From a virus (lineage: Duplodnaviria; Heunggongvirae; Uroviricota; Caudoviricetes): a stretch of 24,660 nucleotides of DNA. The position numbers are program-made. The stretch is from IMG/VR virus record IMGVR_UViG_2534681934_000023; one strand, 5' to 3'. The first letter of the stretch is position 1. Each line of letters opens with the position of its first letter. This document shows, piece after piece, positions 3,001-6,000 of the stretch.

Positions 3001-6000
3001 CCACTCCCTACAGAGTGGCTTTGATAATGGCTTATACCCTACACGGGATAACTTAACTGATATCCCTTTTAACGGATAAAGGTATTCAAGCCTGACACAT
3101 CATGCGCTGTATCGTCGCTGTATTCCCGCATTAACCATGACCGTAGCCCGACGGGGAACTCCTTCTGCGCGAGTGTGCGGGAATAATCAAAAACGATGCA
3201 CACCGGGTTTTTACCGCGCTAATGATTCGCGGGTTTGTCCCTCATGCTCGCCAGTCCTGTGCGGGGGTGGAAGAAACAGGACACTCACACAGATTCTTGT
3301 GGGTCGATGCTATTCCTTTCTGGATTATCCCGATGCCATTCATGCAAGGGCTGTATCAGACGTTCGTCATGGCTTTCAGGCTGACGGCTCCTCCCGGTGG
3401 GGTGGCCTGCCACGGGGCGGGAGCGTCGCGGAAAAAGGCTAGTTTTTGCATTTTTATCGGCCACCATCATCTTTGCATCTTATTGATTATTAATGGTTAT
3501 TTGTTTTTTGTATGTCGAATTGAGTGTTTTTTGTTCGACATCGAACGCGTTTTCTTAAAGTTGTTCGCACGATGCATGTTTAAAGCTCTCCGGAGGAAAT
3601 ATGGATCATGAGTTGAAAAACCTGGTGCTGAATATTAATCAACTGGCGGCTTTATCTGGTCTGCACCGCCAGACTGTCGTGGCAAGACTGAAAAACATTC
3701 GTCCCGCTGGTGGACATGACAAACTCAAGCTATACCGGTTGACCGATATTCTGACTGAATTTATGGGGTTACCACCGCCGGTTGCTGAGGGCGAAATGGA
3801 TCCACATGAACGCAAAGCCTGGTATCAGTCTGAACGTGAGCGTCTTAAGTTCGAACAGGAAACGGCACAACTCATTCCGGCCAGTGATGTCAGACGGGAG
3901 TTTGCCATCTGGGCAAAAGCGGTCGTGCAGGTGCTGGAGACATTACCGGATATTCTGGAACGTGACTGTGGTCTGCAGCCTGCCGCTGTGAGCCGTGTTC
4001 AGTCCATTATTGATGATCTGCGCGATCAGATAGCCCTGCGGGTGACCGAAGCAGGTGCGGATGATGAGGAGGAATTACAGCAGGAGGAGTAATGCTGAAT
4101 CAGGAAACCGCAAAGGCAGCACGAACCGATTCAGGTTATATCCTTCGCGCACCGAGACGAATGCGGGTTGCTGATGCCGTTGCTCAGTATATGCGGGTGC
4201 CCATGGGGGCCGGGAACTCAGTCCCGTGGGATCCGCTGGTGGCACCGTATGTTATTGAGCCGATGAACTGCCTGGCCTCGCGTGAATACGACGCAGTGAT
4301 ATTTGTTGGCCCGGCACGAACCGGCAAGACTATCGGCCTGATTGACGGCTGGGTGATTTACAACGTGATTTGCGATCCTGCGGATATGCTGATCATTCAG
4401 ATGACGGAGGAAAAAGCCCGCGAACACTCCAAAAAACGACTCGCCAGAACGTTTCGCGTCAGCCCGGAAGTGGTCAGTCGCCTGAGTCCGAACAAAAATG
4501 ACAACAACGTTTATGACAGAACATTCCTTGCTGGCAACTACCTGAAAATCGGCTGGCCGTCAGTCAATATCATGTCCTCATCAGATTATAAATGCGTGGC
4601 GCTGACGGATTATGACCGTTTTCCGGAAGATATTGATGGCGAGGGGGATGCCTTCTCTCTTGCCTCAAAACGTACCACCACATTTATGTCCAGTGGTATG
4701 ACGCTGGTGGAGAGTTCCCCCGGCAGGGATGTGAAGGATGTGAAATGGCGACGGACTTCACCGCATGAGGCTCCACCAACCACGGGGATACTGTCGCTCT
4801 ATAACCGTGGCGATCGCCGTCGCTGGTACTGGCCCTGTCCACACTGTGGTGAGTATTTTCAGCCCTGCGGCGATGTGGTTGCTGGTTTCCGTGATATTGC
4901 CGATCCCGTGCTGGCAAGTGAGGCGGCTTATATTCAGTGTCCTTCCTGTTCAGGACGGATTATGCCTGAACAAAAACGTGAGCTGAACGGACGTGGGGTC
5001 TGGTTGCGGGATGGTGAATCCATCAATGCGGATGGTAGTCGTTATGGTGATCCCCGACGCTCACGTATTGCGTCATTCTGGATGGAGGGTCCGGCAGCTG
5101 CTTACCAGACACTCTCGCAACTCGTTTACAAACTGCTTACTGCAGAACAGGAATACGAGACAACCGGAAGTGAAGAAACACTCAAGACGGTTATCAATAC
5201 CGACTGGGGATTACCTTATCTTCCCCGCGCCAGCATGGAGCAACGAAAAAGTGAACTGCTTGAGCAGCGGGCAGAGCCAGTTCCTTCCAGCAGTGTGCCG
5301 GATGGCGTTAATTTCCTTGTGGCGACAGTGGATGTGCAGGCGGGACGTCATCGCCGTTTTGTGGTTCAGGTAACGGGCTATGGCAGCCGTGGCGAACGCT
5401 GGATTATTGATCGTTACAACATCACGCAGTCATTGCGCGGTGACAGCGACGGTGAGAGCCAGCGAATTGATCCGGCCAGCTATCCGGAAGACTGGGATGT
5501 CCTGCTGACGGATGTTTTTCATAAAAGCTGGCCGCTGGCCTCCGATCCTTCTCAACAAATGCGACTGATGGCAATGGCGGTGGACTCCGGCGGTGAAGAC
5601 GGGGTCACTGATAATGCCTATAAATTCTGGCGTCGTTGCCGTCGTGATGGCCTTGGTAAACGTATTTACCTGTTTAAGGGCGACAGCATCCGGCGCGCAA
5701 AACTGATCACCCGTACATTCCCTGATAACACCGGACGAACGGGCCGACGGGCGCAGGCCGCAGGTGATGTGCCGCTCTGGCTTCTTCAGACGGATGCACT
5801 GAAAGACCGGGTGAATAACGCGTTATGGCGTGACTCTCCAGGTCCCGGCTATGTGCATTTCCCTGACTGGCTGGGGAGCTGGTTTTACGACGAACTGACG
5901 TATGAAGAGCGGAGTAGTGACGGGAAATGGAGTAAGCCGGGTCGCGGTGCCAACGAAGCTTTTGACCTGATGGTGTATGCCGAGGCTCTGGTCATTCTGC

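Follow-up and report, generated by a model that had tools for sequence, protein, structure and literature searches.

The 24,660-nucleotide stretch of viral DNA analysed here (the window) holds a prophage of the decayed O157:H7 Sp3 / CP-933K type, adjoining ybhC, in which a lambda-type cos site precedes genes for the small terminase, the large terminase and the portal (Table 1). The small terminase matches Pfam DUF1441 (E=4.6e-44) and PHROG 141, "terminase small subunit" (E=2.7e-77). Residues 11-40 give a weak, below-cutoff match to HTH_30, and a sequence search against solved structures gave only marginal helix-turn-helix matches (E about 0.8). The large terminase, encoded just downstream of the cos site, belongs to the gpA family, containing both GpA_ATPase (PF05876, E=9e-72) and GpA_nuclease (PF20454, E=2e-85), each far above the curated cut-off. 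It is 25-29% identical to lambda gpA (25% over 623 amino acids, E=3e-19, in one alignment), and 85%, 79% and 70% identical to the large terminases of cdtI, mEp213 and Sp15 respectively. Two open reading frames that overlap the cos region (3137-3442 and 3222-3611) were treated as spurious, having no Pfam match, only partial PHROG matches and no PGAP annotation.

Table 1. Features of the cos region and the adjoining packaging genes; bp values are counted from the predicted left end
Feature	Coordinates	Strand	Description
cosQ-like heptamer GGCTCCT	3386..3392	+	22 nt upstream of the predicted top-strand nick, placed by alignment
cosN	3413..3428	+	12-bp cohesive-end sequence GGGCGGGAGCGT (3415-3426), flanked left and right by a conserved CG dinucleotide
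Segment right of cosN, CGCGGAAAAAGGCTAGTTTTT	3427..3447	+	position equals the lambda cosN-cosB interval (I2)
ATCGGCCACCATCATC block	3456..3471	+	bp 42-57; candidate equivalent of lambda R3, putative first small-terminase site
IHF-like site AATCAATAAGATG	3476..3488	-	bp 62-74; one mismatch to WATCAANNNNTTR
8-bp inverted repeat	3512..3541	.	arms ATGTCGAA (3512-3519) and TTCGACAT (3534-3541); candidate R2/R1-like opposed small-terminase sites
GTTGTTCGCAC	3560..3570	+	bp 146-156; possible third copy of the right-arm element, weak support
Small terminase gene	3601..4092	+	163 aa; DUF1441 / phrog_141; helix-turn-helix-like N-terminus
Large terminase gene	4092..6194	+	700 aa; gpA family; ATPase and endonuclease domains
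Portal gene	6331..7912	+	lambda gpB family; frameshifted by a single inserted nt within a run of T near 7428

In phage lambda the cos site comprises cosQ (GGGTCCT), cosN (GGGCGGCGACCT) and a cosB with the order R3-I1-R2-R1, and the terminase is of the Nu1/A type. The present locus resembles lambda in the order and spacing of these parts, with cosQ 22 nt upstream of the nick compared with 23 nt in lambda, and about 187 nt from nick to ATG compared with 191 nt. The original prediction described a cos-like junction with flanks that match lambda and an overhang that differs at 4 of 12 positions, and a re-reading of 3412-3431 agrees, giving acg (3412-3414), GGGCGGGAGCGT (3415-3426) and cgcgg (3427-3431) with changes at overhang positions 7, 8, 9 and 11. 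The lambda junction quoted there is correct against the NC_001416 record, which starts GGGCGGCGACCTcgcggg and ends ...ggttacg. The distance to the terminase genes, put at about 170 bp, is 170 nt from the end of the motif (3431) to the small terminase ATG (3601), and the predicted nick falls approximately 186-187 nt upstream of that ATG. Positions 1-6 (GGGCGG) and both flanking CG pairs are the same in lambda, Gifsy-1 and mEp213, so that 3413-3428 has the left half and the CG beside each nick by which a lambda-like cosN has been defined (PMC4669245). Two-fold symmetry extends to 8 of the 16 bp of cosN here and to 10 in lambda.

A search that covered the window and the complete prophage of a nearly identical strain found no lambda 12-mer with up to 2 mismatches, and so offers no alternative cosN; nor do related phages use another cos position, this one being common to the relatives. 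The same cosN, including its flanks, occurs in nine phage records, and at least 120 loci in IMG/VR and 120 or more metagenome contigs also have it, which makes at least 240 viral and metagenome loci. Among 5426 complete E. coli genomes, 2157 (approximately 40%) have a cos region of this type. The nine phage records span three different cosB and small-terminase types, and across hundreds of loci cosN is kept to the base as the neighbouring sequence on both sides diverges. Its place with respect to cosQ and the terminase genes is fixed, and deposited genomes have their ends at it. The segment immediately to the right is invariant in cos types A, B and C and nearly invariant in the mEp213, Sp15 and Gifsy-2 types. 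A 7-nt inverted repeat around cosN (GGTGGCC/GGCCACC) was considered as a functional element and dropped, as it is not kept in type B relatives.

The type of overhang tracks the clade of the large terminase. Phages with at least 85% identity in this protein all carry GGGCGGGAGCGT, while mEp213 (79%) carries GGGCGGCGCGCT, Sp15 (70%) carries GGGCGGGCGGGC and lambda (28%) carries GGGCGGCGACCT. The divergent overhang, if part of the real cosN, had been expected to be unusual for a phage with lambda-like tail genes, a view that is not supported, as all four changes fall within bp 7-12. These positions were found by Feiss et al. (2015) to vary often among lambda-like phages, the conserved parts being bp 1-6, the flanking CG pairs and cosQ, and a cosN with right-half changes is still nicked efficiently by lambda terminase (PMC4669245). 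The end of Salmonella phage Gifsy-1 (GGGCGGCAGCGT), cited by the same authors as a natural right-half variant (PMC4669245), differs from the present overhang at position 7 only; its flanks are conserved and its cosQ is GGGTCCT, but its terminase genes are Nu1 and A of the lambda/21 type and its cosB is different. The divergence therefore lies within the natural variation already described for lambda-like phages, and the site is real and ordinary. It reveals no new mechanism. It gives further natural examples of the published pattern of selection on cosQ, the CG pairs and the left half of cosN with drift at bp 7-12, a pattern that holds here even with a large terminase only about 25-29% identical to that of lambda.

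The top strand is predicted to be nicked after 3414 and the bottom strand after 3426, which would leave a 12-nt 5' overhang. The GenBank records of cdtI (AB285204) and Tritos (OV696610, prophage 3 of E. coli LF82) are two independent deposits in which base 1 is the first G of GGGCGGGAGCGT (start GGGCGGGAGCGTCGCGG) and the end is ...GGGTCCT-22 nt-CCACG. Tritos is reported to form virions and plaques (PMC9928086), and the cos sites of mEp213 and LLS were inferred in like manner (PMC12315714). The starts of the cdtI and Tritos records may themselves derive from analogy with lambda. The assemblies of Ayreon, mEp460_4F5 and Flotzy are broken or garbled precisely at cosN, circumstantial evidence that is consistent with physical DNA ends at this point. 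No contig among the IMG/VR or metagenome loci, most of which are integrated prophages, terminates exactly at the nick, and a literature search on the 12-mer sequence found no phage paper.

The cosQ-like heptamer is a one-base variant (G3 to C, 6 of 7 bases) of the conserved GGGTCCT. The conserved form stands at the cosQ position with exact spacing in 113 of 121 loci from IMG/VR and 107 of 117 from metagenomes (220 of 238 in total), and the GGCTCCT variant is found in three IMG/VR loci and one metagenome locus (4/238). cosQ has been reported as invariant in nature (PMC4669245).

As in lambda, the cosB is AT-rich and contains an IHF-like site. A block of the TCATCA(T/C)CA type stands at equal distance from cosN in all DUF1441-type cos regions, and other sequence takes its place in the cdtI type, whose small terminase is different; for comparison, lambda R3 occupies bp 50-65 (PMC9026076). 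The IHF consensus by itself is not enriched in the window. In relatives an IHF-consensus site lies at bp 62-76, as part of a geometry that matches lambda; the corresponding place carries a perfect consensus in 59 of 62 loci of type B, in all 35 of type A and in none of the 18 of type C, and it is from this conserved position in relatives, not from the window alone, that a binding site for IHF is argued. The inverted repeat, expected at about 3509-3542, is real: its 8-nt arms are 100% complementary and 14 nt apart, and the spacer holds a T6 tract. TTCGNCA is present twice in 174 nt compared with 0.05-0.11 copies expected in a post hoc test, while copies beyond the two palindromic ones are not significant. 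TGTCGA and GTTCnnCA are kept across E. coli, Klebsiella and Salmonella relatives, and in Gifsy-2 the palindrome is preserved through a change at both outer bases, making the repeat a plausible candidate for a small-terminase binding site. Conservation suggests that there may be third and fourth copies, which are statistically not distinct; GTTGTTCGCAC is itself not distinct by this measure, and is kept between types B and C and absent from the shorter mEp213-type cosB. The suggestion of an AT-rich protein-binding region is partly supported by the core of the repeat and by the position of the IHF consensus, both conserved in relatives, and is weakened by the mismatch in the IHF-like site of this cos type.

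Phage mEp460 and its relatives (mEp460_4F5, ev081, 569R4, phi458 and PhiR40_1) share the cosN, the layout of cosB, the DUF1441 small terminase (87% identity in 4F5) and a 99% identical large terminase, with PhiR40_1 being 98% identical across the whole cos region. Most of them, those of type B, differ in that their IHF consensus is perfect and the right arm TTCGACA is replaced by TTCATCA, which leaves the 8-bp palindrome imperfect there. cdtI and Tritos have an identical or near-identical cosN, flanks and next 33 nt together with the 85% identical large terminase, but their small terminase is 179 amino acids long and 43% identical, and their cosB diverges from roughly 35 nt beyond the nick onward. 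Both have an intact cosQ and have been reported to be functional. mEp213/LLS and Sp15 (VT1-Sakai) share the DUF1441 protein, a gpA-like large terminase, cosQ, the left half of the overhang and its flanks, and differ in the right half and in the length of cosB, which is shorter in mEp213 (130 nt) and longer in Sp15 (202 nt). Both the TGTCGAA and the GTTCnnCA elements are present in mEp213, whereas Sp15 retains the GTTCGACA element only.

Apart from overhang bp 7, 8, 9 and 11, the differences from lambda lie in cosQ (GGCTCCT here), in cosB repeats that are unrelated to the lambda R sites, and in both terminase subunits, the small terminase being of another Pfam family and about 26% identical to Nu1. 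With 4 of 12 overhang bases changed, a DUF1441 small terminase and no lambda 12-mer in the prophage, the site falls outside the specificity of lambda sensu stricto, a group comprising lambda, 434, 82 and Sp4/Sp14 that combines the GGGCGGCGACCT end with a Nu1-type subunit and lambda R sites. Within O157, Sp4 and Sp14 carry the lambda-type cos.

The ends of the cdtI and Tritos records, the cosQ-like heptamer and the gpA-family terminase gene downstream bear out the proposal that this is the cosN of this prophage type. We put at roughly 0.87 the probability that the motif is a genuine lambda-type cosN within a cosQ-cosN-cosB packaging module of the mEp460 / cdtI / Gifsy-2 kind, this copy being in all likelihood a relic without function. 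The sequence, its conservation, the gene families and the ends of deposited genomes are direct observations, from which the nick positions, the protein-binding sites and the loss of function are inferred. In a functional relative the small terminase would bind repeats in the 170-bp AT-rich cosB, namely the CATCA-rich block (bp 42-57) and the inverted pair TGTCGAA/TTCGACA (bp 98-127), and IHF would bend the DNA at bp 62-74. The bound complex would then position two large-terminase endonuclease centres on cosN, which would nick the top strand after CCACG and the bottom strand after the complement of CGCGG, 12 bp apart, giving the 5' overhang GGGCGGGAGCGT. Packaging would run rightward into the head and stop at the next cos, where cosQ (GGGTCCT) would be needed for the final nicking.

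One competing explanation, that a GC-rich sequence resembles lambda cos by chance and has no role in packaging, draws on the looseness of the motif. The pattern ACGGGGCGGNNNNNNCGCGG with up to 2 mismatches has 0.20 matches expected in the window, and at least one was found in 15 of 100 shuffles. The single match in the window is exact, but the case against chance is made chiefly by the conservation of cosN and its flanks rather than by the motif count, and given base-level identity in hundreds of loci, a fixed position and coincidence with deposited-genome ends, this explanation is effectively refuted and has almost no probability left. The site could instead be a cos at which the true nicks depart in offset or length from the lambda-based prediction. 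The large terminase is distant from gpA, and the spacing between flanks conserved elsewhere is 10-11 nt in Sp15 and Stx2d records and 14 nt rather than 12 in Gifsy-2, a relative with a 70% identical large terminase, so that uniform nick spacing in the clade is not guaranteed. However, the CG pairs, GGGCGG and the spacing of cosQ are shared with lambda, N15 and Gifsy-1, for which 12-nt 5' extensions have been described, and the cdtI and Tritos deposits independently put base 1 at the same G, making a different overhang very improbable.

The state of the prophage bears on whether this copy of the genuine cosN could still be used. In addition to the rare cosQ mutation, the portal frameshift, a deletion of tail genes beside IS1203 and a frameshift in J, the replication genes are missing, and induction of the phage, once suggested as a way of mapping the packaged ends, is not realistic for such a multiply defective prophage. 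Both terminase reading frames are intact, as are cosB, cosN and the segment right of cosN. This leaves room for a cos that functions in trans, with a phage of the same specificity, co-resident or superinfecting, lending its terminase to package the region, including the effector genes nleB2/nleC, in the fashion of a hitchhiking island. Packaging of defective prophages with the aid of others is known in O157 (PMC2669165), and near-identical cos regions and terminases are found in phages such as PhiR40_1 and mEp460. In O157 Sakai, however, Sp3 does not circularise, replicate or become packaged (PMC2669165), and each O157 genome has one copy of this cos region and thus no resident helper with the same cosB. 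Together with the loss of replication genes and the mutation of a cosQ element reported as invariant (PMC4669245), this makes use in trans improbable, and a non-functional relic is the preferred reading of this copy.

A speculative and rather unlikely extension is that the right-half variants (GAGCGT, CGCGCT, GCGGGC and CGACCT of lambda) represent cohesive-end incompatibility groups among the lambdoid prophages that reside together in one E. coli cell. If this were so, chromosomes with ends from the cos sites of two prophages would not circularise, limiting hybrid phages, and, as a linked idea, the dead Sp3, with cosN and cosB intact, might on occasion still pass on its effector genes with the aid of a helper. 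The practical value of the site is for annotation, as it establishes where cos lies and where the genome is predicted to end in a prophage and phage family that approximately 40% of complete E. coli genomes contain. In this family, several deposited records have been opened arbitrarily or mis-assembled at cosN.

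The cos-like motif that the original prediction placed upstream of the terminase genes is real: acg, GGGCGGGAGCGT and cgcgg run together at 3412-3431, 170 nt separate the motif's end from the small terminase ATG (3601) as had been claimed, and the lambda junction given for comparison was correct (NC_001416 starts GGGCGGCGACCTcgcggg and ends ...ggttacg). From the predicted nick to the ATG there are ~186-187 nt, while in lambda there are 191. The window's 12-mer is mismatched to that of lambda (GGGCGGCGACCT) at positions 7, 8, 9 and 11, a divergence that had been called unusual provided the site is the real cosN. 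Feiss et al. 2015 (PMC4669245) take 12-base 5′ ends resembling those of lambda as the defining mark of lambda-like phages, and differences at bp 7-12 are common, with N15 differing at 9 and 12 and Gifsy-1 at 8, 9 and 11 (PMC4669245). What is conserved is cosQ, the left half and the flanking CG pairs, and lambda terminase still nicks cosN efficiently when the right half is changed (PMC4669245). Because the right half is known to vary, the window's variant fits the published pattern exactly and the description as unusual is not warranted; the site is an ordinary representative of a class that has been described. The Gifsy-1 site (NC_010392), GGGCGGCAGCGT, is one base from the window's 12-mer, and a 2025 paper inferred GGGCGGCGCGCT likewise for mEp213 and LLS (PMC12315714). 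In the O157 literature the lambda-identical cos sites of Sp4 and Sp14 were aligned, that of Sp3 was not (PMC2669165).

Published phage genome records already begin at the identical site. GGGCGGGAGCGTCGCGGAAAAAGGCTAGTTTTT opens the GenBank records of both phage cdtI (AB285204) and phage Tritos (OV696610), so that base 1 of two independent deposits is the first G of the 12-mer, and both records end ...GGGTCCT, 22 nt, CCACG. Tritos is prophage 3 of E. coli LF82, for which siphovirus particles and plaques are reported (PMC9928086). The same cosN with its flanks is internal in seven more phage records (PhiR40_1, 569R4, phi458, mEp460_ev081, mEp460_4F5, HannyBb and mEp460), IMG/VR loci and metagenome contigs with the exact 24-mer of cosN plus right flank each number at least 120, and of 5426 complete E. 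coli genomes, 2157 have a cos region of the window's kind.

Features of the cos region and its surroundings in the window
Feature	Position	Detail
Terminator-like hairpin	2960-2979	AGCCTCGC-ATTC-GCGGGGCT, then T run
cosQ	3386-3392	GGCTCCT
Left flank	3412-3414	acg
12-mer	3415-3426	GGGCGGGAGCGT, predicted overhang
Right flank	3427-3431	cgcgg
Segment right of cosN	3427-3447	CGCGGAAAAAGGCTAGTTTTT
IHF-like site	3476-3488	one mismatch
Inverted repeat, left arm	3512-3519	ATGTCGAA
Inverted repeat, right arm	3534-3541	TTCGACAT
Second short palindrome	3532-3547	GTTCGA-CA-TCGAAC
Small terminase ORF	3601-4092	DUF1441 / PHROG 141 'terminase small subunit'
Large terminase ORF	4092-6194	both gpA domains
Portal gene	6331-7912	1-nt insertion in T run at about 7428
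IS1203/IS629-type element	10485-11756	ORFs 10543-10869, 10866-11756
gpJ tail-tip homologue	15013-18427	split near 15773
nleB2 and nleC	20921-22954	type III effector genes; prophage right end, downstream of tail fibre genes

Across the relatives the lambda cosQ heptamer GGGTCCT lies 22 nt before the nick, one nt closer than lambda's 23. In the 16-bp cosN core the left half, GGGCGG, is retained, as is the CG dinucleotide on either side of both predicted nicks, and the segment to its right is invariant among loci having this 12-mer. Beyond ~35 nt cosB falls into three types, associated with different small terminases: A (cdtI), B (mEp460) and C (the window). With bp counted from the predicted top-strand nick, 59 of the 62 type B loci and all 35 type A loci among the matches listed have a perfect minus-strand IHF consensus at bp 62-76; type C, including the window, has the one-mismatch site. 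All DUF1441-type cos regions carry a TCATCA(T/C)CA-like block at ~bp 42-60, which roughly matches the position of lambda's critical R3 at bp 50-65 (PMC9026076).

The 8-bp inverted repeat noticed downstream of cosN also exists. It corresponds to a pair of conserved elements, TGTCGA(A) and GTTCnnCA, with a T tract between them, which relatives from E. coli, Klebsiella (Kp4865-4) and Salmonella (Gifsy-2) also have. Only type C and Gifsy-2 have a perfect palindrome, and in Gifsy-2, with arms GTGTCGAA...TTCGACAC, each arm has a substitution in the outer base pair. The inverted pair alone stands out statistically; additional copies of the repeat elements were tested and showed no statistical distinction. 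The right arm is also part of the second short palindrome, giving a third TCGAA unit, which the window and Gifsy-2 have in common and type B relatives lack.

Against lambda gpA the window's large terminase reaches just 25% identity in BLASTP (28-29% by global alignment), in contrast to 99% for mEp460, 85% for cdtI and Tritos, 79% for mEp213 and 70% for both Sp15 and Gifsy-2. Overhang type tracks these large-terminase clades: the window, mEp460 group, cdtI and Tritos share one 12-mer, mEp213, Eeyore and Kp4865-4 have GGGCGGCGCGCT, and Sp15 has GGGCGGGCGGGC. One cosN occurs beside two markedly different small terminases (43% mutual identity), each with its own cosB; recognition of cosN by the large subunit and of cosB by the small one would lead to this pattern.

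The best explanation, to which we give a probability of about 0.87, is a lambda-type cos at which the DUF1441 small subunit would bind cosB, with IHF assisting, and two gpA-type nuclease centres would nick 12 bp apart to leave a 5′-GGGCGGGAGCGT overhang; the sequence, its conservation and the gene families are observed, whereas the nick positions and binding sites are inferred. A chance resemblance can be discounted almost entirely: the loose flank pattern has one match in the window, an exact one, against 0.2 expected, and it is conservation, rather than this count, that really speaks against chance. That the nicks fall elsewhere than predicted is very improbable given where the cdtI and Tritos records begin. 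Three virion-DNA assemblies are disturbed exactly at cosN, likely as artefacts of assembling across physical ends, and are circumstantially consistent with DNA ends there. In Ayreon (L009, MF807953, 815-965) ~130 bp of chimeric sequence, annotated 'putative late gene regulator' and including a piece of the phage's own small terminase gene, replaces the 12 nt between CCACGGGG and GGAAAAAGG; the mEp460_4F5 record (L010, 1-20) opens 5 nt before the nick with 3 nt of overhang missing, and the overhang of Flotzy (L014, about 735-750) is short by 3 nt. Gifsy-2 (L145, NC_010393, about 800-850) has a more diverged cos, with GGTACTC at the expected cosQ place and 14 nt (GGTGGCTTCGGGCT) instead of 12 between the conserved CCACG and CGCGGG flanks, which could reflect either an overhang of another length or degeneration of the site.

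Over 5.4 kb the window is 100% identical to a ybhC-adjacent prophage of many E. coli O157:H7 genomes, annotated in the order int-xis, truncated bet, nin genes, Q, lysis genes, cos, terminase, head and tail genes, nleB2 and nleC, and it is therefore a lambdoid prophage of the Sp3 / CP-933K type. Operation of its cos in trans with a helper is unlikely: cosN is preserved, but cosQ is GGCTCCT, not GGGTCCT, the former occurring in 4 and the latter, at exact spacing, in 220 of the ~238 cosN-sharing matches listed. Wieczorek and Feiss reportedly found (Genetics, 2001) single-base cosQ changes to be severely deleterious in lambda. According to Feiss et al. natural cosQ variation is not apparent (PMC4669245). 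GGCTCCT probably arose by decay within the O157 Sp3 lineage, and those IMG/VR loci with it that were checked (L088, L097) share the window's portal frameshift, which yields two ORFs where homologues such as that in locus L066 are intact. Relative to E. coli strain 319, whose sequence matches it exactly as far as 10485, the window has a 4.8-kb deletion beside IS1203, reaching from the head-tail joining gene into the tape-measure gene, most of which is gone together with tail genes Z, U, V, G and T. In strain 319 the gpJ homologue is intact; in the window a 1-nt insertion amid a few clustered substitutions breaks it into ORFs of 264 and 889 aa. The prophage has no repressor or replication genes, and Sp3 in O157 Sakai shows no circularisation, replication or packaging (PMC2669165). 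The window's copy of cos is best read as a relic.

The strong terminator-like hairpin follows the lysis genes ~435 nt upstream of cosN, within the expected late transcript. By position rather than alignment, the Ayreon record has an annotated terminator at a similar place after its lysis genes.
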